A stretch of 64,000 nt of DNA from Escherichia phage AV116. Location of the stretch: sequence record OR352946.1; one strand, written 5' to 3'. The notes beneath the pieces were generated by a model, which saw only the letters and a list, made by a program, of their open reading frames with translations, did not search any database and was not told the DNA's origin. A program made the position numbers and the translations under genes. Each line of letters begins with the position of its first letter. Position 1 is the first letter of the stretch. Positions 5,939 through 39,758 of this stretch are shown in pieces.

Positions 5939-6954
5939 TGTGTTGCCTCAATATAAAGTTCGTTGGAATATTTGACCAGCGCTTCTCTGTCTTCATCTGA
6001 GATATCTGGAATCGCGTCAATATATTCTTTAATGATATCTTGAAGTGATTTAATCTCGATTTCCTGGTCGTCATCAGATTCAACACTGTTATCAACTTTA
6101 GAAACCATACGAAGAGAGTGAACTACTTTTTCAAGTTCAGATTCAAACTTAGTCAACTCTGAATCAATTTCTGATACTATAACACGTACGGCTAGATTAG
6201 TATAATCAGAATAATTGATTTTGCCTTTAAATGGATAAGTGATTCGTCGATGCCATGTTGTTTCATTAGGAATAAATTCCATACGTTCAACATCAGTGTC
6301 AAATACCCAGAATCCGCGCGGGTCGTTCTCATCACCTGCAGTAAGGGTCCATGGTGTCCCAATATATTTGACGTTAGCAGCTTCAGAGATTGTGTGGAAG
6401 TGGCCGGACCAGACTTGTTTATAGGTCTTTAAGAAATCAGGTTCAAGCCCATGAGACTTCATTCCTTTATAGAAATAGAAGCCATTTAATTCCCAGTGCC
6501 CAACACAATACGCTGCAGAAGAAGTCTTGATGTGCTCTAAGATTTCACCTGTATTTTCTTCACACATCCATGGAATCAAATCAATCAAGCACCCATCAAA
6601 ATCTACTGTAGTTGGCTTATCATAAATTATTACGTTTTTACGATGGCTCAATAATTCTTGAACAGTGTTAGGATATAAGGTTGTTTTATAAAAGAGATCA
6701 TGATTCCCAAGTATTGTATGGACTGTTATACCAGCGGCTTCCACCAAATCAAACATTTCACGCGTGAATTCCATACAACGTTGTGTGGTGTGGGCTCTGA
6801 CATCAAATGTATCACCATATTGAATCCATGTTGTTATTCCATTTGCGACGGAATAGTCGATCATTTGTCTGAAACCGTCACGTTGTATAGCTTGAATCCA
6901 ATCGTCGTCTTTTTTGACGCCTAGATGCAAATCGCCTATATTAAGTATTTTCAT
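5935..6954 (-). CDS. 47: recombination endonuclease subunit gp47 (Mre11/SbcD-like phosphoesterase)
   Basis: 339 aa from ATG at 6954; phosphoesterase motifs GDLHLG, GNHD, GHxH. Confidence 0.9.
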   Translation of the reverse strand: MKILNIGDLHLGVKKDDDWIQAIQRDGFRQMIDYSVANGITTWIQYGDTFDVRAHTTQRCMEFTREMFDLVEAAGITVHTILGNHDLFYKTTLYPNTVQELLSHRKNVIIYDKPTTVDFDGCLIDLIPWMCEENTGEILEHIKTSSAAYCVGHWELNGFYFYKGMKSHGLEPDFLKTYKQVWSGHFHTISEAANVKYIGTPWTLTAGDENDPRGFWVFDTDVERMEFIPNETTWHRRITYPFKGKINYSDYTNLAVRVIVSEIDSELTKFESELEKVVHSLRMVSKVDNSVESDDDQEIEIKSLQDIIKEYIDAIPDISDEDREALVKYSNELYIEATQ

Positions 6955-7757
6955 CACATACCTTTAAATTTGGAGTAAATTATATTGTGGTACGATATAT
7001 CAGGAAACCCTTTATCGACCGCAATTTTTCTAAACTTATTAGGACTTATTTTACCACACTCCATCCATAATGCAAACAACTCGTCAAAATGCTCATATGC
7101 TGGACCTCGACGAGCTTTTGACACAGCAGCACTTATGCGAGCCTTTTTCTCAGAATCAAGGTTTTTAAGAGAATTACTTATTTTATTTTTTTGCTCTTCT
7201 GAATTGAAGGTGCCTTTTTCCCAGCCTAAAGGTTGGCTTCCTTCATGGAACATTTTTCTTGAAGTTCCATTGGTATACCATATTTTACCTTTATTGTGCC
7301 CTGATGCTTTATATTTTGGTGAGCGTCCTTTTATAAATCCTTCAGGTATAGTAGGAGCAAATGTTTGTTCAAGGGTTTCTGGGTTATACGAATGTATGTT
7401 ATTTTTGGCGTTATGAGACCCATATAATGGGTGATTTTTACCAGAAACATCACGCCCAAAGAAACCAGTTGGTGATGCCAAAGACATATTCATATACAAA
7501 GGATTTTTATGAGCTTGAACTCTAATTTGATAGTCCTTTTCCACCTTTAAAGCTTCTTCTCGTGTTGGATGTTCGCTCAAAATACAAGAATCAAACAACG
7601 TAGGATTTTCTAAAAGTTCTTTGTTATAAATTTTACGATAGGCTTTAGATAGAATAGTACCATGATACCCGTTTAAATGTTTTTCTAAGCTAGTCGAACC
7701 TATGTAAAAAGGTGGTAGCTTATCTCCAGAATAAATTGTCAAATAGACTATAAACAT
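6954..7757 (-). CDS. GIY-YIG homing endonuclease-like protein with NUMOD3-like repeats, paralog 2
   Basis: Start at ATG 7757 with AAGGAG SD; FIVYLTIY...FYIGST, conserved Glu/Asn region (SCILSEHPTREEALKVEKDY...HKNPLYMN) resembling I-TevI catalytic domain; GKNHPLYGSHNAKN and K-x-K-I-S repeats. Confidence 0.6.
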   Translation of the reverse strand: MFIVYLTIYSGDKLPPFYIGSTSLEKHLNGYHGTILSKAYRKIYNKELLENPTLFDSCILSEHPTREEALKVEKDYQIRVQAHKNPLYMNMSLASPTGFFGRDVSGKNHPLYGSHNAKNNIHSYNPETLEQTFAPTIPEGFIKGRSPKYKASGHNKGKIWYTNGTSRKMFHEGSQPLGWEKGTFNSEEQKNKISNSLKNLDSEKKARISAAVSKARRGPAYEHFDELFALWMECGKISPNKFRKIAVDKGFPDISYHNIIYSKFKGM

Positions 7758-8402: not shown

Positions 8403-8612
8403 TTATCTCATTAAATTAAAATAAAAACGTCCGTCCTCTTCAATACAGAACTCATACTCAACCGGAGTCCCATTTATCGAAAATAACACGTCATGTGGGT
8501 TCAAAGGGTCGATGTCAAAATTAATTTTAAATTCACGACCCAACAGTTTTACCAAATAAGGGATTGCTTCGTCAAAAGGTTCTTCTAAGTAGTTAGAGAT
8601 GTCAATTGTCAT
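8403..8612 (-). CDS. hypothetical protein
   Basis: ORF downstream of gene 55; ATG at 8612 or 8618 overlapping the gp55 stop. Confidence 0.4.
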
Positions 8613-9177
8613 CCTCATATAAAAAATCCAAACTAGGCGAATCGCTAACAACTTCCTTCTTTTCAGCCCCAGGAGCTTTATAAGCGGATTCTTCATAATG
8701 CGTCATTTTATCGTAGATGTCTTGAATAAACGTTTCATCTACCAACGCTACCATATCATCGTCATGACTGTCGTAGACATTATGAACGAAGTAACTATAT
8801 TTCTTTGCAACTTCCTTACGTTCTTTTTTGATACGTTGGACAAAAGCATTAAAACAAGCTCGAGTTATGTATGCATGTGGGTTATTGTACTTAGTTTCGT
8901 CGAAATTATGAAGTCCCTTAATAGAGGCTTCAATCCCATCTGCAATCATCTCCTGCTTCCAAGACTGGGTATATCCTGAAAAGTTGAAACGTTTGGACAG
9001 GCCTTCGGCGATAAGCATAATTGCTAAACCGATGGTATCATTCTGACGAATAATTTTGTTTGGGTCTTTATTATTTAAGAGCTCCTTTTTCCACTCGATT
9101 ATAGCGGCGAGAAGCTCTTTATTATTCACATAGTTATTTTTAGGTTTTTGTTCAGTCATAAGTACCTCTTGGCTCAA
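8602..9177 (-). CDS. 55: late-transcription sigma factor gp55
   Basis: 191 aa; near-identical over long stretches to remembered T4 gp55 ([52 protein letters not shown]). Confidence 0.95.
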
Positions 9178-9314
9178 TTCATAGGTCTATTATATCATAA
9201 TATTTAGAGACCTATCTTAAAGCACGAGATACTATAAAAGATACATAACTTTTATAAAGTTGTCGACTTAAAATTCACCAATCTTTTCTTCAGTTATACT
9301 GATTCGAGTTAATT

Positions 9315-9542
9315 TCATTCTAGTTCCTTTGCTGCTTCAAGAGCAGCATCCAGCGAATCAAATTGGTCAACGAAATCAATATTTAACGCATCGTCAACCG
9401 TAGCATATAACCACCATTGTTTGAATTCGTATTCAAGAATAAATCCAGGACCTTCAATCTGAGGAAGACCTAGGCTATTTGTACCAACTTCGTAACCAGC
9501 TAGACGCAGGTCATTAATCAAAGTTTCTGTTAATACGCTCAT
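9315..9542 (-). CDS. hypothetical acidic protein
   Basis: 75 aa co-oriented ORF. Confidence 0.45.
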   Translation of the reverse strand: MSVLTETLINDLRLAGYEVGTNSLGLPQIEGPGFILEYEFKQWWLYATVDDALNIDFVDQFDSLDAALEAAKELE

Positions 9543-9871
9543 TTTACCGCCTTAACAATTTTCAGGTCAACGAATTTTTTCTTACGTTGATTTTTCATAC
9601 GACGGATAGTCTTTTCAGAGATTTCATGTTTCTGATAAGCTTTAGATTCGACACCAAATGCAGCAACGTCAAATTCAGAAAGAATGTATTGCACTAGAAT
9701 TTCACGAATAGAGTTACGTCCAATTTTCTGCTCATGTTTTTGCATGATTTCATAGAGACGATATTCCCAGGCGTCAAGAACTTGAGGAGTAACAATATTG
9801 CCGGATTCCAGAAGAGCAACAACTTTATCGAAAGCGAAAGAATTAACTACGTTTTTGATTTTAGTAGACAT
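9539..9871 (-). CDS. hypothetical protein
   Basis: ATG at 9871 (MSTKIKN...) with GAGGAAA SD; early promoter module immediately upstream. Confidence 0.5.
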   Translation of the reverse strand: MSTKIKNVVNSFAFDKVVALLESGNIVTPQVLDAWEYRLYEIMQKHEQKIGRNSIREILVQYILSEFDVAAFGVESKAYQKHEISEKTIRRMKNQRKKKFVDLKIVKAVK

Positions 9872-9890
9872 ATTATTTTCCTCGGTTATT

Positions 9891-9938
9891 TTATTATCCA
9901 ATGAGAGCATTATACTCTGCTCTCAAGAGTTTGTAAAT
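9891..9938 (-). repeat. 48-nt exact repeat copy A (early promoter module)
   Basis: ttattatccaatgagagcattatactctgctctcaagagtttgtaaat; identical copy at 37698..37745; contains TTTACA-N17-TATAAT on minus strand. Confidence 0.85.
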
Positions 9939-9940
9939 CG

Positions 9941-10153
9941 TTATCCGAACTTTTTAGCGCCTTTCCAGCCTTCGTACATAACTGCACAAGTCAGTAGCAC
10001 AGCGTGTTGGCATTCTTTGTATTTGTAAATCCAGAACCAGCGTAAAAAGTCTTCATCCTCAACACCGTTGAGTTTCATGTTGGCGAAGAATTCAGCTCGT
10101 TCTTCGCGAAGTTTTTGAGATAACATAGATTCAGGATTCATTTTGTGTTCCAC
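9941..10153 (-). CDS. hypothetical protein
   Basis: 70 aa co-oriented ORF. Confidence 0.4.
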   Translation of the reverse strand: MEHKMNPESMLSQKLREERAEFFANMKLNGVEDEDFLRWFWIYKYKECQHAVLLTCAVMYEGWKGAKKFG

Positions 10154-10272
10154 GCCCCGTTTTCATCGATGAACTTAATCCAGTCATTTACAGACCATTT
10201 AGTTGTATCACCCTTTGGATTAACATTTAAAGTATATAATCCCTGCTTAAAAAGCATTCGTTTGATATTCAT
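10138..10272 (-). CDS. hypothetical small protein
   Basis: ATG at 10272 with GAGGAAA SD; track ORF 10138..10365 shortened to avoid overlap. Confidence 0.35.
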   Translation of the reverse strand: MNIKRMLFKQGLYTLNVNPKGDTTKWSVNDWIKFIDENGAWNTK

Positions 10273-10279
10273 AATTTCC

Positions 10280-10573
10280 TCAACTGTAACGATAACATTC
10301 GTTAGCTTTACGTTTGGCTTCAGTATGAGAAGTATTATAATCATACTCTTCTTTACTGTAAACATCTTTTTTCAACTTACGAACTTCTTTGCGGAGTTGT
10401 CGATTCATTTCGTTCTTGACTTCAGAATCAACGCCTTTCATACGTTTCCATTTATCTGAGCGGAAGATGTTTTCAACCATGTCTTTGTGGCTAACACCGT
10501 CAGGAGCTTTACGTTTACCAAAATAGTCGTAATCACGAACTTTCAAATCTTTACGACGATACGTTTTACCCAT
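10280..10573 (-). CDS. hypothetical basic protein
   Basis: ATG at 10573 (MGKTYRRKD...), lysine/arginine rich. Confidence 0.4.
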   Translation of the reverse strand: MGKTYRRKDLKVRDYDYFGKRKAPDGVSHKDMVENIFRSDKWKRMKGVDSEVKNEMNRQLRKEVRKLKKDVYSKEEYDYNTSHTEAKRKANECYRYS

Positions 10574-10580
10574 AAGTACC

Positions 10581-10829
10581 TCAGAGGTTGATTGATACAA
10601 TGCGTTTGATAAAATTCACTTCACTTACTGAAAGGTCTTTAAGACCGATTGATTCTAAACGCTGAATAAAAGTCAACATTGGGATATAGTCCCATTGTGT
10701 TTTAGTCGTTTGATAAGTACGGACGCCATTAGCAATTTCAACATGCAAATCGGAAATGGTAATGAATACCGGTCGCTCGTCATTAACTTTAAGGGTTAGA
10801 ACAACTTTCTTTGAATCTAAACTAATCAC
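10581..10829 (-). CDS. hypothetical protein
   Basis: 82 aa ORF. Confidence 0.4.
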   Translation of the reverse strand: MISLDSKKVVLTLKVNDERPVFITISDLHVEIANGVRTYQTTKTQWDYIPMLTFIQRLESIGLKDLSVSEVNFIKRIVSINL

Positions 10830-29528: not shown

Positions 29529-29831
29529 TTATTTACCTTTAATTACTTTAGCTGCTTCGATAGCCGCTTGCTGAAGGTCATCCATAGACATACCAAATTT
29601 AGAAGCAAAGTTATCAATTTTCTTTTCGACAGCATTCAAAGGCTTGGCCTGTTTACCTTCATTAGCGCCAGGAAGAGCGAGAATACGCTCTTTGTCAATA
29701 TAAAGGCTTACAAGTTTCTTACGGTCTTTATCGGACAAATCATGAAATGAATGGGCCTTTTTATTTATAGCGGCTTCTAATTTACCTGCACTCACTCGCG
29801 CTTCAGTAATAAATTCTTGATATGTTTTCAT
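29529..29831 (-). CDS. internal protein with capsid-targeting sequence (IPII/IPIII-like)
   Basis: N-terminus MKTYQEFITEARV is the T4 internal-protein capsid-targeting sequence with L-x-E prohead protease site. Confidence 0.65.
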   Translation of the reverse strand: MKTYQEFITEARVSAGKLEAAINKKAHSFHDLSDKDRKKLVSLYIDKERILALPGANEGKQAKPLNAVEKKIDNFASKFGMSMDDLQQAAIEAAKVIKGK

Positions 29832-31434: not shown

Positions 31435-31893
31435 TTATAGGAGGGTAGTGAGCACCTTATATAATGATTTGCCCATTACATATTCCCATTGAGAAGGTTT
31501 AATTAAAGCGAATGCATCAAATTCAGGAATCTGTCGTCCGTCTGGGAATGTATGATAGGAATTACAAACACTGTTTCTGAATTGCTCGTGCTCTACAGGG
31601 ATGGTATATAGGAACAGATGAATATTCTTATTGTCTGAGTAATGATGTTCACCTAGGTCTTTCAGGAAGGCAGGGTCATATTGTGTAAACCCAGTTTCTT
31701 CTTCGCATTCGCGAATAGCGGCTTCAATAGGAGATTCGCCAGGTTCGACACGGCCTTTAGGAATATCCCACCGATGAGCTAAAGAACCTTTAGGACGAGA
31801 ACCAGTTACACGCCCCATGAATAATTCTTTATCTTCGGTAAGGAAAATAATACCGGCTGATAGTTCTTTCACTTTATTTTTCTTACTCATCAT
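31435..31893 (-). CDS. nudE: Nudix hydrolase NudE
   Basis: Nudix box GRVEPGESPIEAAIRECEEETG. Confidence 0.85.
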   Translation of the reverse strand: MMSKKNKVKELSAGIIFLTEDKELFMGRVTGSRPKGSLAHRWDIPKGRVEPGESPIEAAIRECEEETGFTQYDPAFLKDLGEHHYSDNKNIHLFLYTIPVEHEQFRNSVCNSYHTFPDGRQIPEFDAFALIKPSQWEYVMGKSLYKVLTTLL

Positions 31894-32119
31894 CTCGGTC
31901 CCATGATTTGGCCATTAATTCGGACATAAATTCTTCAATGCGCGTTTCTTTAGATGGACTTTCACTATTAGAGACCGCAAGTTTGTAATCTGCAATAGGA
32001 CAGAACATATCAAGGTCCATATTAAGGTCGTCTTTGATTTTTTCTTCTGACACATCTTTATCGTATGTGTACAGATAACTATCACATGATTCTGATTTAA
32101 TGTAAATTGCTATACTCAT
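31883..32119 (-). CDS. hypothetical acidic protein
   Basis: ATG at 32119 in ATGA overlap. Confidence 0.4.
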   Translation of the reverse strand: MSIAIYIKSESCDSYLYTYDKDVSEEKIKDDLNMDLDMFCPIADYKLAVSNSESPSKETRIEEFMSELMAKSWDRDDE

Positions 32120-32340
32120 CTCAAATTCCTGCATTCGGTAATAAAACGTTCAACTTCATTATTCTTGTCTTTATGTTCTTGTAAACTACTTTTAATAAGA
32201 TTAATAATGATAGCGACAGTGCCGCCGCCAATGATGCCACCAATAATACTTACGATAGTAGATGTTAATAAGATAGCAATAATATCAACAAAACCGAAAG
32301 AACTCACCTTAGTACTAAAAAAACCATATAGACGGTACAA
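32116..32340 (-). CDS. small membrane protein with C-terminal F-I-T-E-C-R tail
   Basis: hydrophobic core IIAILLTSTIVSIIGGIIGGG; tail ERFITECRNLR. Confidence 0.45.
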   Translation of the reverse strand: MYRLYGFFSTKVSSFGFVDIIAILLTSTIVSIIGGIIGGGTVAIIINLIKSSLQEHKDKNNEVERFITECRNLR

Positions 32341-32584
32341 ATATAATCCATCCTGTTATCCATTGGCACTTATTGAAAAACTTTTCAAGCTCAGCTTGAG
32401 TTGTTCGTATTACTTCATCGATAGGTTGATATCCGTTAATGTATCTGTTCACGATAATACCTGCTGACTGGTCGATTTTAAATTCTTGGCAAATATGTTT
32501 CACTAAGTATGATGGACATCCTGTCCAATCTACTGAATAGTATGAAATACCTTCATTGCCGTCGTCTATATTATTGTTAATCAT
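32315..32584 (-). CDS. hypothetical protein
   Basis: 89 aa ORF; C-terminal hydrophobic segment. Confidence 0.35.
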   Translation of the reverse strand: MINNNIDDGNEGISYYSVDWTGCPSYLVKHICQEFKIDQSAGIIVNRYINGYQPIDEVIRTTQAELEKFFNKCQWITGWIIFVPSIWFF

Positions 32585-33270
32585 TACCAGCCTTCCATAG
32601 GGAATTCCAGATAAACTTGAGCATTGACACGAATTTCATTGGTAATCTTTTTAACTCGGTCTGTATTACGAGATACACGTCCGAACCAACGCCATCCGTT
32701 ACTAATTGCACGAGAACCAGTGTGCCATGTTTGCCAATCAAACTGAAGAAGAGTACGATCTGGAGCTTCCCATTTCTCTAGTTCGCCTTTTTCGATTTTT
32801 TCGAGGACTTCTTTGTGCCACTGGCGATAGATAAGTTCGCCATCAGGAATCTGACTGAACTCTGCAGTTCCTGTTGCAAAATGAGTAGGACACACATCAG
32901 CGTTAACAAGACCAAGAATATGTTCAGACAAATAGCGAGGATTGTCATAGTCAGGTTGTCCTGCAGTAATAAAATGTTGACCAACCGGAATATCCGGGCG
33001 TGGTACGTCATCATGGTGATAACCAGGAATAGCAGGATACCAAACAGGCATCAGCATGTGGACTCGTGAATCAAATACTACATCCGAGTCTTTCCAATCG
33101 TCAGGGAGATTTTGGATAAAGCTACGAGTAATTGGACCGCCATTATCAAAAGCAAAATTCAAATCGCAATTAAAGAACATAGGCTCGTTTTTAATCTGGT
33201 CATTTTTAATCGCATGAGCAAAACCACCTACTGCACGAGCTTGACTATTAAACACTTTAGAACTATTCAT
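32584..33270 (-). CDS. hypothetical protein, 228 aa
   Basis: ATG at 33270 with GAGGAAA SD; Trp/His-rich. Confidence 0.5.
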   Translation of the reverse strand: MNSSKVFNSQARAVGGFAHAIKNDQIKNEPMFFNCDLNFAFDNGGPITRSFIQNLPDDWKDSDVVFDSRVHMLMPVWYPAIPGYHHDDVPRPDIPVGQHFITAGQPDYDNPRYLSEHILGLVNADVCPTHFATGTAEFSQIPDGELIYRQWHKEVLEKIEKGELEKWEAPDRTLLQFDWQTWHTGSRAISNGWRWFGRVSRNTDRVKKITNEIRVNAQVYLEFPMEGW

Positions 33271-33271
33271 A

Positions 33272-33577
33272 TTATTTTCCTCGGCATTCTTTAATGAAAT
33301 TTTCTAGATTGGTAGATTCAATAGCTTTTTTACGAGCTTCTGCATGTTCTTCTTCGGACAATTTACATTTATAATTGACCCAGACATTATGGTCGAAACT
33401 AGTCGTGGCATATAATAACAATGCTCCAGCGAATAGCAAAAACGGTGATAAGAATACAAAACCAGGAACACCATCCATACTGTAAGCCTTTTGTAATACT
33501 GCAACAGAAAGAGCTGCGTAAAAAGGTGATGCAAATATTGTTAAAAGACCAATTCGGTTGGTTTCGCCTAATTTCAT
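33272..33577 (-). CDS. small membrane protein with C-terminal ENFIKECR tail
   Basis: two TM segments; tail NLENFIKECRGK. Confidence 0.5.
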   Translation of the reverse strand: MKLGETNRIGLLTIFASPFYAALSVAVLQKAYSMDGVPGFVFLSPFLLFAGALLLYATTSFDHNVWVNYKCKLSEEEHAEARKKAIESTNLENFIKECRGK

Positions 33578-33606
33578 AATATTCTCCTCATGTTTTAATA
33601 GGACTA

Positions 33607-33635
33607 CTATAACATAATCCTATAATTATGTAAAC
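33607..33635 (-). promoter_or_regulatory. T4-type early promoter-like element in hairpin
   Basis: minus strand GTTTAC-N17-TTATAG. Confidence 0.5.
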
Positions 33636-33647
33636 AGTTTTGCGAAA

Positions 33648-34604
33648 TTATTTGAAAGGTTTTACCATATGAAAATTTTCTTTAAACCGTTTGATGTAAT
33701 CATTTTTGCCGAGCTTATGATACATAGCCACTACTTCATAATAGTTCTCGTATGCGTACTCACGGAACCAACCGGAGGTGATGCTTGTGCAGACTTTTTC
33801 TAATGCCATCATGAAACTGGCTTCAGGGTTAATTTTAAAGTCATTAGGAATCTGAGAACGTTCTAACGCTAGTACACATGATTCTTCGTATACGCCGGCC
33901 AATTTGACCATTTCCGGTAATGATTCGAACTTCTCGCGTGAGGTCATGACTTCAGAACCATCTTTCATATAAAATGTATACGCTGGACGGTCTGTTAGTG
34001 CAATGGCTTCATGAATAGTATCATGGTCATATGTATAGATGTCATCTTTAAAGAACGCACTTTTAGAAGTGTCAAGAACTGGGTGAGCATAATTCAAGGT
34101 TTCTTTCTGGCGTTTCAGCATAATTTCAGTAAGTTCATCGTTCAGTGTAACACCTTTACCACGAAGATACTGAATATGGTTCATAGTCTTTAAAAAGAAT
34201 GGATTATTTTTCTTGAAACGATGAGACATCTTAATTGCAAGACATATCTCAGGAGTTGCCCAGTAAAACCCGTTCAAACGGTCTTTAGTCAAATTTTTCT
34301 TGGCGTATTTTAAAAGGTCATAAGAAGACGTGAAATCTTCAGGAGTGAGTTCACCGACTAATTCACGGACATTAGTGATTGCCGGAACAATATATGCTTC
34401 AAAATGAGTTTCGCGTCCATTATGGAAGCATTTGAAAACTTGGACATCAGGGTTATCTTGGTGAACATATACACCCATCATTTGATTTTTGAATGCGTTC
34501 CAAGAACCTTGGTCCGCAATAAAGTCCCAATCACTATTTTTAATAGCGCTAGAATCAATAAGACCGTGATAGTGAAGTGCACGAGAACCAATAACTAACA
34601 TCAT
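33648..34604 (-). CDS. hypothetical protein, 318 aa
   Basis: long co-oriented ORF. Confidence 0.5.
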   Translation of the reverse strand: MMLVIGSRALHYHGLIDSSAIKNSDWDFIADQGSWNAFKNQMMGVYVHQDNPDVQVFKCFHNGRETHFEAYIVPAITNVRELVGELTPEDFTSSYDLLKYAKKNLTKDRLNGFYWATPEICLAIKMSHRFKKNNPFFLKTMNHIQYLRGKGVTLNDELTEIMLKRQKETLNYAHPVLDTSKSAFFKDDIYTYDHDTIHEAIALTDRPAYTFYMKDGSEVMTSREKFESLPEMVKLAGVYEESCVLALERSQIPNDFKINPEASFMMALEKVCTSITSGWFREYAYENYYEVVAMYHKLGKNDYIKRFKENFHMVKPFK

Positions 34605-34632
34605 AATATTTTCCTCGGATTAATTCATTAAC

Positions 34633-34884
34633 TTAAATTTCACGACATGCGATATTATATTCATCCCAGAGGTCATCATGTGAAGCTTCTACCAATGGAA
34701 CGATTGTACCGTTTATGTCTTCATTATAAGGGCAAATTGTACAGTGCGCATCTTCGAATCGGATGCCTTTGTGTTCAGATTTTTTATAACGCATATCGAA
34801 TATCTTTGCAAACTTTTCACGAGTAATAGTTTTAGCAACCACTTTGGTTCCAATACTTTCGTAATAAATCATTGTGGACTCCAT
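34633..34884 (-). CDS. hypothetical protein with C-terminal N-I-A-C-R tail
   Basis: 83 aa; CTICPY and C-terminal EYNIACREI. Confidence 0.45.
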   Translation of the reverse strand: MESTMIYYESIGTKVVAKTITREKFAKIFDMRYKKSEHKGIRFEDAHCTICPYNEDINGTIVPLVEASHDDLWDEYNIACREI

Positions 34885-34901
34885 TTAATTTGATAGGACT
34901 A

Positions 34902-34930
34902 CTATAACATAGCCCTATCTTGTTGTAAAC
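34902..34930 (-). promoter_or_regulatory. T4-type early promoter-like element
   Basis: minus strand GTTTAC-N17-TTATAG. Confidence 0.5.
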
Positions 34931-34934
34931 TGTT

Positions 34935-35132
34935 TTAGCAAGAATAACTAGATGATACCCAGCCTTGAACAGTGATACTATTGTGGGATAATGAGATCGC
35001 GTCCTGGAGATTCAGACCTGCGTTATCTTCAATCCATAATGTAACTTCTTCACGTTCTTCTGTTGCAATTTGGAACAGGTTTTCCAGGGCAGCTACTGCC
35101 GTACGTACAGCACAATCTAATTCACGAGACAT
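34935..35132 (-). CDS. small protein, C-terminal GWVSSSYSC family member
   Basis: 65 aa ending QGWVSSSYSC. Confidence 0.45.
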   Translation of the reverse strand: MSRELDCAVRTAVAALENLFQIATEEREEVTLWIEDNAGLNLQDAISLSHNSITVQGWVSSSYSC

Positions 35133-35141
35133 ATTGTTTCC

Positions 35142-35414
35142 TTAGCAAGTGTGAGAAGATGCGACCCAACCACCAGTTTCGAGGCTCAGGTTGTAGTCGT
35201 ATTGGTAAACGTCGGCCCATTCAGCATAGCCGTTTTTTGTACAACGTTCAAGATCAGCTTTAAGATGTCCGGGTGAATGATAGGTTCCGCCCATACCATA
35301 AGCCGGATACAAATTAAACGTGGTGTTTTGTTTATCAGCAATTTCTTTGGCAGCCTCAATAGCTGCATAGATTTTTGCTACAGCTTCAGCCAGTTCGGTT
35401 TGTTCTTTAGACAT
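35142..35414 (-). CDS. small protein, C-terminal GWVASSHTC family member
   Basis: 90 aa ending GGWVASSHTC; paralog of 35424..35729. Confidence 0.45.
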   Translation of the reverse strand: MSKEQTELAEAVAKIYAAIEAAKEIADKQNTTFNLYPAYGMGGTYHSPGHLKADLERCTKNGYAEWADVYQYDYNLSLETGGWVASSHTC

Positions 35415-35423
35415 AATGATTCC

Positions 35424-35729
35424 TTAGCACAACGCAGAAGACGAAACCCAAGCACCTTCAGTAATAACGTAACCATTACCTTCACGCTTAACATCGCCAC
35501 CATTATTTTCAATTTCATTTTTCATCCACTGGGATACGATTTCACCCTTAGGATAATAAGTACGACCGCTACCATAATCACCTACAGAAAATGATACGGC
35601 ATATTGGTCTGCGATCTTTGTTGCTTCTTCTTCGATACGTTCAGCTTGATTCAGAAGTTTATAAATTGCATCTGAAGCGGATTTGGCATCATTAAACTCT
35701 GGTACTTTAATTTCAATAATCTTACTCAT
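35424..35729 (-). CDS. small protein, C-terminal GAWVSSSALC family member
   Basis: 101 aa ending GAWVSSSALC. Confidence 0.45.
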   Translation of the reverse strand: MSKIIEIKVPEFNDAKSASDAIYKLLNQAERIEEEATKIADQYAVSFSVGDYGSGRTYYPKGEIVSQWMKNEIENNGGDVKREGNGYVITEGAWVSSSALC

Positions 35730-36085
35730 TTTCTACATTCCTTAATAAAGTTTTCGATTGTTTCATTTTCACGTTTAGCTAGAAGTTCATTATAACTAAT
35801 CATTTGAGAAGCGTAAATCTTTTTATTTTTCTTGTTATGGTTTATAAAATCGTAGTAAAAATAGACTACAGTACAAAATGATGCGATGGATGCAAAGGCT
35901 TGGGTATACCGTAAGTCCTGCCATTGGTCTGTGAATCCACCAGTGTTCCCTATAAATCCTAACACAACGCCGTCAATAAGAAATCCAACTAATCCAAAGG
36001 CAAATCCCATGCCAATACTCATAATAAAAATTAGAATGTTCTCACCAAGAGAAGGCCATATGGTTAAGAGTTGAGGCTTTTGCAT
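35726..36085 (-). CDS. membrane protein with C-terminal ENFIKECR tail
   Basis: two TM segments; tail IENFIKECRK. Confidence 0.5.
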   Translation of the reverse strand: MQKPQLLTIWPSLGENILIFIMSIGMGFAFGLVGFLIDGVVLGFIGNTGGFTDQWQDLRYTQAFASIASFCTVVYFYYDFINHNKKNKKIYASQMISYNELLAKRENETIENFIKECRK

Positions 36086-36459
36086 CTTATTTCCTTAACG
36101 AATTCCATAGCTTCTTCATATTCATACTTTTTAACAGCTTCATCATACTGAGCTTGGGCTTTTGCGCACTGAACTTTCCATTCTCTTAATCGGGCTCTGT
36201 GATGACGGCCTTGGTGCCAATATCCTACCCAATTAATAGGCATTAATAAAAACGGTACAATAAGTGGTGCGACGAACATTAATGAAAATGCTGCATCAGA
36301 CGATATAACTTCACTAGAATCTAAAACAGCTCCTATAATCATAAAGATTAAAAATGCTAAAGCTAAAATAGGGCCAAATAATACTTCATTTGGGATTAAT
36401 TTACGCTTGTATTCATACGCCCAGGGCTTACTTGGCATGTATAGGGTTGGCTTTGACAT
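36064..36459 (-). CDS. membrane protein with C-terminal K-E-I-R-C tail
   Basis: two TM segments; probable ATG at 36459 (track start 36489 is TTG). Confidence 0.4.
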   Translation of the reverse strand: MSKPTLYMPSKPWAYEYKRKLIPNEVLFGPILALAFLIFMIIGAVLDSSEVISSDAAFSLMFVAPLIVPFLLMPINWVGYWHQGRHHRARLREWKVQCAKAQAQYDEAVKKYEYEEAMEFVKEIRCKSLNS

Positions 36460-37030
36460 ATTCTCTACATTCCATAATAAATTGCTCAAGGATTAAATTG
36501 TTAGTGAAATTAGGACTAACAACCATAGTTTCATAAAGCGCATCAATAGCACTTAAAGCATCAACTCTTTTAAGCAAAGGCTTGCCTTCATACATAGTTT
36601 CAGAATCGATGATTAACGTAAAGTAATATTTTTTATTATCGACTAGAACTTCTGTATCGATATAAAACATATTAGACCTCAGAAGCTTATCTCTAAAGCC
36701 ATAATAATCTTCAGAGCGTTCGCTGATATATTCCCATTCAGTGTTTAAACAACAAACAGACCACGTAGGAGCAACGAAATCAGTGAATCTAATATCATGG
36801 TCTGCAACTAGTTTAGCAATAGCTCCGATATCATGAATCATAATACCTGGGGCTAATAAAGATTTTCTGCTATGGCTAGCCGTTTTCTCGGTGGTCTCAT
36901 AAGAAGACGACCAGTACCATTTACGTCCAGTTGCAACATATCGTAATGAATCAACTAAAGACGTAGGTGGATTTACCTTATCTCGGAACTCTTCGAACAT
37001 TGAGTCAATATCATTATTTTGGTTTCGCAT
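36428..37030 (-). CDS. hypothetical protein with C-proximal F-I-M-E-C-R motif
   Basis: ATG at 37030 (MRNQNND...); ..EQFIMECREYVKANPIHAK. Confidence 0.45.
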   Translation of the reverse strand: MRNQNNDIDSMFEEFRDKVNPPTSLVDSLRYVATGRKWYWSSSYETTEKTASHSRKSLLAPGIMIHDIGAIAKLVADHDIRFTDFVAPTWSVCCLNTEWEYISERSEDYYGFRDKLLRSNMFYIDTEVLVDNKKYYFTLIIDSETMYEGKPLLKRVDALSAIDALYETMVVSPNFTNNLILEQFIMECREYVKANPIHAK

Positions 37031-37079
37031 GTTAACTCCTTTATTATCCAAAAGGAGGACCGGAGTCCTCCGTATTATT

Positions 37080-38673: not shown

Positions 38674-39300
38674 TTATTTACGGGTTTTTGCATACTGAGC
38701 AGCGTCAGCAGCCAAACGACCTGCCTGACGAAGTTTTTCTTTAATCTCATCGTGAAGTGGTTGAGTGTACTTCAAACCTTCAATAGTCAAATAAAGACGA
38801 TAAAGGTCTGGGGTATCAAGGTTGTTGATATGTTGGCCATTACGAAGACTGTTGAATTCACGAACGAGTGAAGATGTATCGGATTCAATATCACGAACAA
38901 GCGAAGATAGTTGTTTATATTTTTTTTCCAGGCTAGAAGTATCAAACTTAAGAGCAGGAGCTTTAGGAGTTGCTTTTACTTCCGGCTTAGGCTCAGGTTT
39001 TGCTACTGCTTTAGGGGTCGCAGGTTTAGGAGTGGTAGGAGCAGGTTTTACTTTAGGCGAACCAGATTTAGCAGAAACACCACCACTAACAATATCTTTG
39101 AATGCTTTAGAAGCTCTGTAATATTCTTTTTGGCTGGAAGTGTCGATACCGTACATGGCTTGAACGTTTTTGAAAAACTCTGTACTAGTTTTTGTACCAG
39201 AAATAGCATCGTAAGCAGCTTGCCACTTCTCTTTTGTCATACGTACACCGGCTTCGGTGATTACTTCCGTTTCGGCTAAAAATTCATTAAAAGTATACAT
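38674..39300 (-). CDS. internal protein-like basic protein with Pro/Lys/Thr-rich linker
   Basis: N-terminus MYTFNEFLAETEV resembles capsid-targeting sequence; PKVKPAPTTPKPATPKAVAKPEPKPEVKATPKAP low-complexity segment. Confidence 0.5.
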   Translation of the reverse strand: MYTFNEFLAETEVITEAGVRMTKEKWQAAYDAISGTKTSTEFFKNVQAMYGIDTSSQKEYYRASKAFKDIVSGGVSAKSGSPKVKPAPTTPKPATPKAVAKPEPKPEVKATPKAPALKFDTSSLEKKYKQLSSLVRDIESDTSSLVREFNSLRNGQHINNLDTPDLYRLYLTIEGLKYTQPLHDEIKEKLRQAGRLAADAAQYAKTRK

Positions 39301-39341
39301 TGATGGTCCTTAGAAAGTAGGTTTATTATTTACTATATTTA

Positions 39342-39373
39342 TACAAAAAAGCCCCAACCTTTCGGAAGGGGCT
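39342..39373 (-). terminator. rho-independent terminator-like hairpin
   Basis: AGCCCC..GGGGCT hairpin followed by UUUUUU on minus-strand RNA; same architecture as 24274..24303. Confidence 0.55.

Positions 39374-39681: not shown

Positions 39682-39758
<77 letters not shown>

Follow-up and report, generated by a model that had tools for sequence, protein, structure and literature searches.

Which functions are encoded by the two largest genes between nudE and the tRNA genes of Escherichia phage AV116, and do their products act together or with the small proteins encoded around them? The DNA analysed here, hereafter the window, is a stretch of 64,000 nts of this phage (OR352946.1); it is a segment of a Mosigvirus (RB69-like T-even) genome and is 98% identical to Escherichia phage AV114 over positions 32000-35000. 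Two ATG-started open reading frames (ORFs) belonging to conserved families lie on its minus strand, orfA, encoding 228 amino acids (aa) (32584..33270, PHROG 1843), and orfB, encoding 318 aa (33648..34604). Both had been picked out in an earlier note made from the sequence alone, and both were recovered at exactly these positions as conserved coding genes, with 1283 (orfA) and 2131 (orfB) homologous clusters at 90% identity (E<=1e-3). Close Mosigvirus relatives annotate them as coding sequences (CDS; e.g., APCEc01_172 and APCEc01_169) with the product 'hypothetical protein', and in a 50,000-record phage collection both genes carry this same name or occasionally 'putative nucleotidyltransferase', 'oxidoreductase' or a mislabel.

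The product of orfB is predicted to be a nucleotidyltransferase (NTase) of the pol-beta fold and that of orfA an Fe(II)/2-oxoglutarate (2OG) oxygenase. The NTase gene and an array of genes for small tailed proteins upstream of it form a phage-restricted two-part module, which recurs across many phage lineages; no earlier description of this pairing was found in the literature. The earlier note had recognised no motif in either protein, a statement that the alignments contradict, since they contain G-S...D-x-D...E and two Pfam domains of unknown function (DUFs) in the 318-aa protein and H-x-D...H...R in the 228-aa protein. Its proposal that the two proteins are the catalytic components of the block holds in so far as both are predicted enzymes with intact catalytic motifs, but not for the partners that it had in mind, the membrane mini-proteins ending in F-I-x-E-C-R.

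The nucleotidyltransferase and the mini-protein array

Three tandem mini-protein genes lie upstream of orfB on the same strand (34935..35729). Copy 1 (35424..35729) encodes 101 aa with an isoelectric point (pI) of 4.7 and the tail ...GAWVSSSALC-stop (PHROG 899, E=2e-22; family profile E=2e-21), and copy 2 (35142..35414) encodes 90 aa with a pI of 5.0, a central F..YGMGGTY motif and the tail ...GGWVASSHTC-stop (PHROG 899, E=5e-19; family profile E=1e-22). Copy 3 (34935..35132; 65 aa, pI 4.2; PHROG 4882, E=8e-37) is shortened and lacks the YG.G motif; its tail, ...QGWVSSSYSC-stop, was read from the translation and aligns with the family. The family profile also recovered a member in RB69, RB69ORF139c (P0430, 71 aa).

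Shared across the family are an amphipathic helix at the N-terminus, F..YG.G.TY in the middle of the protein and the tail, for which the consensus is G-x-W-x-[SA]-S-S-x-x-C-stop. The bodies vary and the last ten residues are nearly fixed: in the seed alignment of 56 sequences, the tryptophan at position -8 is found in 52, the serines at -5 and -4 in 54 and 52, respectively, and the terminal cysteine in all 56. This cysteine is the sole one in half of the mini-proteins. Their acidity is uniform, with medians of 92 aa, pI 4.4 and net charge -9, compared with a pI of 6.4 for other small neighbours. Other than generic designed helices, no relative was detected in Pfam, NCBIfam, PADLOC or PDB.

The association with the NTase was assessed on 80 viral loci per enzyme family, which were grouped by similarity of their flanking DNA into 23 orfB groups and 45 orfA groups; the 44 groups of orfA loci without orfB served as the control. 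A match to the mini-protein profile at most 2.5 kb upstream and on the same strand was found in 16 of the 23 orfB groups and in none of the control groups (Fisher p = 2e-10). With a relaxed regular expression for the tail, the counts were 22/23 and 0/44, with group averages of 1-6 copies, and arrays range from 1 to 7 tandem copies. The reverse search led to the same pairing. A database search with the mini-protein alignment gave 52 matches, and in all six diverse matches examined for genomic context, which represent four distinct contexts, a DUF7275 gene lies 0-1.4 kb away. Furthermore, phage T4 lacks both the NTase and the mini-proteins, and short-form NTases, which are devoid of the full beta-sheet, are accompanied by mini-proteins at none of seven loci.

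The arrays differ in arrangement. In contig L175 (4001..5650), seven tandem ORFs with a W-x-S-S-x-x-C tail are found around one NTase gene. At locus L178 (1887..4261) there are five such ORFs, one of which overlaps the NTase stop by 4 nts on the downstream side.

Pfam divides the orfB product into DUF7277 (aa 2-101, nts 34302..34601, minus strand), an N-terminal NTase core of the pol-beta type, and DUF7275 (aa 120-305, nts 33690..34247, minus strand), a conserved C-terminal helical domain. The N-terminus reads VIGSRAL...SDWDFIA, and G6, S7, D25, D27 and E69 are invariant among 62 homologues down to 44% identity. These residues provide the h-G-[GS] and the subsequent [DE]-h-[DE]-h of the pol-beta-like superfamily, the latter as D25-W-D27. 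The third catalytic carboxylate would be E69, on the predicted strand 64-73, which is invariant in the long forms and missing, together with its strand, from the short forms. The AlphaFold2 model (predicted local distance difference test, pLDDT, 92) has the alpha-beta core fold of NTases. The best structural match is the toxin MenT1, with MenT3 and MenT4 also among the top four; the superposition on MenT1 covers ~145 residues and the rest of DUF7275 is without a confident structural relative. In PDB profile searches, no sequence profile of orfB reached any solved structure, and MenT chains were unmatched at E<=10. Similarly, sequence membership in AbiEii/MenT (DUF1814) was rejected, as Pfam returned just DUF7275 and DUF7277, and PADLOC, which is presumed to include AbiE models, returned nothing. 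Sequence and model thus lead to a predicted activity, that of a pol-beta-fold NTase with intact catalytic residues.

Short homologues from Streptomyces and Gordonia phages retain only the G-S...D-x-D hairpin fused to DUF7275, and truncated forms from actinophages and Vibrio phages likewise keep G-S and D-x-D. A stand-alone DUF7275 enzyme in Vibrio phages was considered and proved to be an annotation artefact, an upstream start restoring the hairpin. In Vibrio phage phi-ST2 (KT919973.1, phiST2_0282), the gene has been annotated with a start that lies too far downstream; an ATG at L006:2657, which overlaps the preceding stop (TAATG), adds ~49 codons and restores MRIVVGSTALHH...KDLDVF. The universal core is hence the hairpin plus DUF7275, with K125, H128, K139, H194, D195, H198, E240, E241, E248 and R249 invariant. 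K125, H128 and K139 are on the first helices of DUF7275 and may or may not correspond to motifs III and IV of MenT. Because the shortest homologues keep hairpin and DUF7275 together, the two domains probably build one composite active site and are not two independent enzymes. There is precedent for this in DUF1814 enzymes, whose catalytic site is built from motifs I and II together with III and IV, the latter two being C-terminal (PMC7450476).

Members of the NTase family are found almost exclusively in phages: 185,579 bacterial species genomes contained 10 loci, mostly on contigs of metagenome-assembled genomes (MAGs). No publication describing the families discussed here was found in the literature on DUF7275, RB69 ORF names, phage NTases and phage 2OG oxygenases. 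A calcineurin-like phosphoesterase was considered as a third component of the module and rejected (3 of 23 orfB groups, 1 of 44 control groups, none in the window). Metallophos (Pfam) genes lie 0.3-7 kb from the NTase/mini-protein module in three lineage groups and two further contexts, which represents a weak association (L171/L176, 1182..1923; L173/L177, ~6130..7150; L046; L059; L073). Genes for SIR2, ADP-ribosylglycohydrolase and Pnkp also recur near these NTase loci.

The oxygenase

The orfA product has no match in Pfam or NCBIfam, its family being absent from Pfam and linked to no named family by PADLOC either, and a profile search of 1.84 billion representatives retrieved 738 clusters at 50% identity. 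Among 108 diverse sequences (31-54% identity), H85 and R194 never vary, and the conservation of D87, H183 and R198 is 90% or higher. H85-x-D87...H183 corresponds to the iron-binding H-x-D...H triad, and R194, 11 residues past H183 and followed by R198-V-S200, to the 2OG-binding arginine; the predicted structure adopts the double-stranded beta-helix fold. A single sequence match was obtained in PDB and it is non-significant; in it, H183 is aligned to the distal His of the halogenase BesD and R194 to its Arg. These are the features of an Fe(II)/2OG oxygenase with a complete facial triad, an activity predicted from alignment and model. Membership in PhyH (PF05721) was rejected: the best of the 108 members reached E=0.068, for one sequence, and the window protein had no match. 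The UniRef name of one homologue, 'Phytanoyl-CoA dioxygenase family', is thus to be read as a fold-level label only.

The oxygenase family extends to phages of Mycobacterium, Gordonia and Bacillus. Copies from coliphages and from Aeromonas phages share 70-80% identity for orfA and ~45% for orfB. Across T-even-type loci, orfA is located on the downstream side of orfB, at a distance of 5-797 bp. Over the whole sample, orfA is near orfB in one of the 23 orfB groups, and orfB is near orfA in 23 of the 80 oxygenase loci, all on large contigs. Hence orfA is mostly an autonomous, horizontally mobile gene, usually found without the NTase, which follows the NTase in T-even-type phages and a few others. 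In contig L175, a distant orfA paralogue (profile E=3e-8), which has H-V-D and H...R-x-F-x-R-x-S motifs of its own, is located right after the NTase.

Both enzyme families occur in phages that presumably do not carry the arabosyl-5-hydroxycytosine modification of RB69. A role in that pathway was rejected, as its published gene table (gp3, 28, 45-55 and 159) contains neither gene type and does not include this region (PMC13326640).

Candidate mechanism and its rivals

The best joint explanation, to which we give somewhat less than an even chance, is that the NTase nucleotidylates the tails of the mini-proteins within a two-part module and that the oxygenase is separate and autonomous. Early in infection, the NTase would bind the G-x-W-x-[SA]-S-S-x-x-C tail, the C-terminal DUF7275 domain completing its active site. 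The His/Asp/Glu cluster of DUF7275 would hold the terminal Cys or the carboxylate, and the hydroxyl of a serine in the tail would receive a nucleotidyl group from a nucleoside triphosphate. Once modified, the acidic mini-proteins would act as effectors, probably in host takeover or counter-defence. Modification of the tail is favoured because a short, invariant, serine-rich end on variable proteins resembles an enzyme recognition or modification site, and serine O-nucleotidylation is favoured because the closest folds (MenT, ANT(2'') and LnuA) transfer a nucleotide to a hydroxyl. The acceptor, donor nucleotide, expression timing and biological role given here for the module are those that we infer. 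A more far-reaching and distinctly tentative version is that the DUF7277-DUF7275 enzyme tags the invariant tails of diversified mini-proteins and thereby activates, times or targets swappable early effectors, the oxygenase supplying a second modification in some lineages.

Several points weigh against tail nucleotidylation. Association means partnership and not a substrate relation, and a role of the mini-proteins as inhibitors, adaptors or co-effectors is just as conceivable. The known protein targets of the NTase fold (GlnE, GlnD and MntA) are tyrosines and, to our knowledge, precedents for a pol-beta-type NTase that O-nucleotidylates serine are scarce. The 44 control groups mostly come from phages smaller than the NTase-bearing ones and are therefore an imperfect background, a weakness offset in part by T4, by the searches in the reverse direction and by the short-form loci. 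The L175 paralogue suggests that the oxygenase is perhaps less independent of the module, with an occasional functional tie being possible. Finally, the promoter-like sites of the locus (see below) are mere consensus matches.

The main rival of tail modification is a MenT-like action on tRNA. The locus would be organized like a toxin-antitoxin system, the upstream mini-proteins being inhibitors or regulators of the NTase, as MenA1 is for MenT1. The rank of MenT1, MenT3 and MenT4 in the fold search argues for this reading, as does the gene order, in which small proteins precede the NTase: in MenAT loci the toxin gene is located downstream of the antitoxin gene, and the MenT1 antitoxin has 68 aa (PMC7450476). 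In addition, orfB lies 5 kb from phage tRNA genes and, in a few other lineages, the NTase gene lies 0.6-1.4 kb from tRNA clusters. However, a linkage of orfB to tRNA clusters, which the MenT-like fold and the Gordonia and Streptomyces contexts had brought to attention, was rejected, such proximity being no commoner for the NTase (5 of 20 lineage clusters) than for the oxygenase control (2 of 8). Neither Pfam nor PADLOC places orfB in DUF1814/AbiEii, up to seven diversified copies with an invariant terminal Cys are unlike antitoxins, the family is nearly absent from bacterial genomes (see above), and a general tRNA poison would harm the phage too. Because the arrays are multi-copy and diversified and tRNA genes are not linked, this rival fits poorly, and we consider it unlikely.

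The tandem of the two enzyme genes raises the alternative of a two-step tailoring pair, as in loci for ribosomally synthesized and post-translationally modified peptides (RiPPs), in which the oxygenase would hydroxylate a mini-protein residue and the NTase would decorate the tail or the new hydroxyl. Tandem diversified small proteins next to tailoring enzymes resemble RiPP loci. The order NTase-then-oxygenase holds throughout T-even-type phages at the short gaps given above and is also found with gaps of 1-2 kb in 230-kb Aeromonas phages, and the oxygenase paralogue stands directly after the NTase in L175, a contig unrelated to these. Against this, 22 of the 23 orfB groups have no oxygenase beside the NTase, and 44 of the 45 oxygenase groups include loci with no NTase within 10 kb, which also have no mini-proteins. 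Aeromonas phage 31 has both genes far apart (ORF062c and ORF247c). Moreover, the higher conservation of the oxygenase than of the NTase between the same phage groups suggests that the two are under different constraint. Such a pair therefore appears rather improbable.

The oxygenase might instead have a part in metabolism or counter-defence related to nicotinamide adenine dinucleotide (NAD), working next to the NAD+ salvage of the phage; its substrate would be nicotinamide, a ribosyl-nucleotide or an immune signal derived from NAD. In oxygenase-only loci, one neighbour alone recurs, a true NAMPT, as its match to NAMPTs of solved structure shows (E=1e-154); it is present in 7 of 44 groups. In four of them, which represent four independent viral lineages (L123, L133, L155 and L162, ~8560..10700 each), the NAMPT stop overlaps the oxygenase start by 4 nts, which indicates translational coupling; in three further lineages, NAMPT lies within 3 kb of the oxygenase. 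Furthermore, orfA is 0.7 kb from nudE, which is annotated in the T4 record as active on ADP-ribose and NADH. However, 4 of 23 NTase groups likewise have NAMPT at a distance of up to 4 kb, and there is therefore no locus-level enrichment beside the oxygenase (p = 1), and the window has no NAMPT. A larger NAD operon around the pair was rejected: the next gene encodes a serine recombinase or has no match, the one in L123 being an unrelated recombinase. The NAD+-reconstitution publications examined for this pairing mention no oxygenase, and we know of no chemical precedent. This role is accordingly a long shot.

A small-molecule O-nucleotidyltransferase, in which orfB would, like ANT(2'') and LnuA, inactivate or activate a metabolite or an antibiotic-like compound and the mini-proteins would merely be co-regulated early genes of unrelated role, is very unlikely, as it leaves unexplained both the near-obligate two-way association with the tailed proteins, in lineages that share no other flanking genes, and the restriction of the mini-proteins to long-form enzymes.

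The surrounding block, T4 and known systems

In the window, nudE (31435..31893) is followed by an 83-aa ORF, an e.2-like gene, orfA, a 101-aa ORF, orfB, a second 83-aa ORF, the three small ORFs and e.3-, e.4-, e.5- and e.6-like genes, with tRNA genes at 39682 and 40469. The 101-aa ORF between orfB and orfA (33272..33577, minus strand, PHROG 9798) encodes a predicted membrane protein with the tail ...ENFIKECRGK; it is variable, and in some relatives orfB and orfA are just 5 bp apart. The 83-aa ORF between the mini-proteins and orfB (34633..34884, minus strand, PHROG 3723, C-terminus ...YNIACREI) was seen in the T-even group only, different genes or none occupying its position elsewhere, and is therefore excluded from the conserved module. 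Genes are tightly packed on one strand: the stop of the 101-aa gene (33272) is one base from the start of orfA (33270), and the orfA stop overlaps the start of the following gene (32584).

Two sites on the minus strand match the consensus of T4-early-type promoters, each with TTTACA, a 17-nt spacer and a TG-extended TATAGT. One (34901..34929; 10/12 positions + TG) precedes the 83-aa ORF and orfB, in an intergenic gap of 51 nts, and the other (33606..33634) precedes the 101-aa ORF and orfA, in a gap of 71 nts. A motif scan detected no late-promoter motif TATAAATA between 29769 and 39336. This T4 late-promoter motif is present on the minus strand at 29762..29769, within an ipII-like ORF (29529..29831), and at 39336..39343, just upstream of a 208-aa internal-protein-like gene (38674..39300, N-terminus MYTFNEFLAE). 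Both of these genes start with a sequence resembling an internal-protein leader, and the latter site would fit a head internal protein that is expressed late.

The e.2-like membrane gene (PHROG 2203, 32116..32584, minus strand) is split into overlapping ORFs of 89 aa (32315..32584) and 74 aa (32116..32340), at a position where APCEc01 has a single 163-aa CDS. Alignment with APCEc01 revealed one extra T, causing a +1 frameshift, and two in-frame 12-nt deletions; this is either a true pseudogene or split gene, or a homopolymer sequencing error.

In T4, the interval from nudE to the tRNA genes holds e.2 to e.8. The flanking genes of the window map to e.2, e.3, e.4, e.5 and e.6, and orfA and orfB occupy a block between the e.2-like and e.3-like genes that is absent from T4. 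The earlier note had named clear homology to housekeeping T4 e.x genes of known function as the observation that would speak against it. This was looked for, and no T4 homologue was found anywhere in the genome: the whole T4 genome gave no tblastn match to either family at E<=1 and no profile match below E~0.2. Neither gene is therefore a T4 e.x gene. T4 nrdC.11 (L008:5435..6445), called 'nucleotidyltransferase' in RefSeq, was considered; neither tblastn nor a profile search related it to the 318-aa protein, so that T4 may possess an NTase of another kind.

The two genes had also been described as the only enzyme-sized ORFs of the nudE-tRNA block. They are indeed its two largest, but the e.5-like (207 aa) and e.6-like (202 aa) genes, a 167-aa ORF and the 208-aa internal-protein-like ORF are present as well. 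Their interleaving with small F-I-x-E-C-R proteins was confirmed for those of 74 aa (...FITECRNLR) and 101 aa (...FIKECRGK). Window ORFs listed for the F-[IV]-x-E-C-R tail are at 32116..32340, 33272..33577, 34633..34884, 35726..36085, 36064..36489 and 36428..37051, all on the minus strand, the end of the 83-aa ORF (34633..34884) possibly being a degenerate copy. The motif is found in T4 as well, at the C-terminus of e.3 (...EFVIDCRKIK), e.4 (...KFVKESRCKSQS) and e.5 (...KFVKECREYVK...), which makes it an old trait common to the e.3-e.5 genes. The F-x-x-E-C-R proteins were rejected as partners of the enzymes, since T4 has e.3, e.4 and e.5 of that type without either enzyme. Outside the T-even phages, the motif is without link to either enzyme, such tails accompanying orfB in 3 of 23 groups and orfA in 1 of 44.

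Both genes can now be given a fold and intact catalytic residues, and an isolated unknown gene becomes a defined, testable two-component module. This module is found in many large-phage lineages, including Mosigvirus phages of the kind developed for therapy. Should the tail be a modification tag, it would represent a new class of viral post-translational chemistry, with a portable ten-residue tag as a common handle on diverse small acidic early proteins, a type that often proves to be anti-defence factors. The oxygenase family is a separate lead, unusually conserved, mobile and, in some phages, translationally coupled to NAMPT, an enzyme central to phage counter-measures against NAD-depleting immunity.

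Among known enzymes, MenT/AbiEii (DUF1814), ANT(2'')-Ia and LnuA share with orfB a pol-beta-type core (G-[GS]...D-x-D...[DE]) followed by a helical C-terminal part, which in orfB would likewise help to build the active site. MenT acts on the 3'-OH of tRNA, ANT(2'') and LnuA on hydroxyls of antibiotics (sugar and lincosamide, respectively), and MenAT1, like the orfB locus, has a small protein gene upstream. In contrast to all of these, orfB has no detectable sequence relationship to them in Pfam, PADLOC or PDB profile searches. Its C-terminal domain is much larger (~200 aa) and forms a separate Pfam family, DUF7275, with its own invariant K/H/HD/H/EE/ER set, and its family is phage-restricted. 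Instead of MenA or an AbiEi antitoxin, its partner is an acidic array with W-x-S-S-S-x-x-C tails.

Covalent modification of a partner protein by pol-beta-fold NTases is known from GlnD (on PII), GlnE (on glutamine synthetase) and MntA (on HepT), and GlnD combines its NTase domain with a metal-dependent helical domain. Unlike the module proposed here, these enzymes modify tyrosines in folded partners and are not known to use a C-terminal linear motif. They are absent from the top fold matches of orfB, and the likeness is a functional analogy only. For orfA, oxygenases of the PhyH/EctD/EasH and prolyl-hydroxylase types have the same double-stranded beta-helix and H-x-D...H triad, and in human PhyH an Arg lies 11 residues after the distal His, the spacing found in orfA.

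RiPP precursor arrays resemble the module in their tandem diversified small ORFs, which share one short conserved motif and adjoin one or two modifying enzymes. The mini-proteins differ from RiPP precursors in their length of 60-100 aa and their conserved helix and YG.G.TY motif, with which they are probably folded. No protease, exporter or RiPP recognition element was found at the locus, which belongs to the early regions of lytic phages, and the conserved element of the mini-proteins is at the extreme C-terminus and not in a leader.

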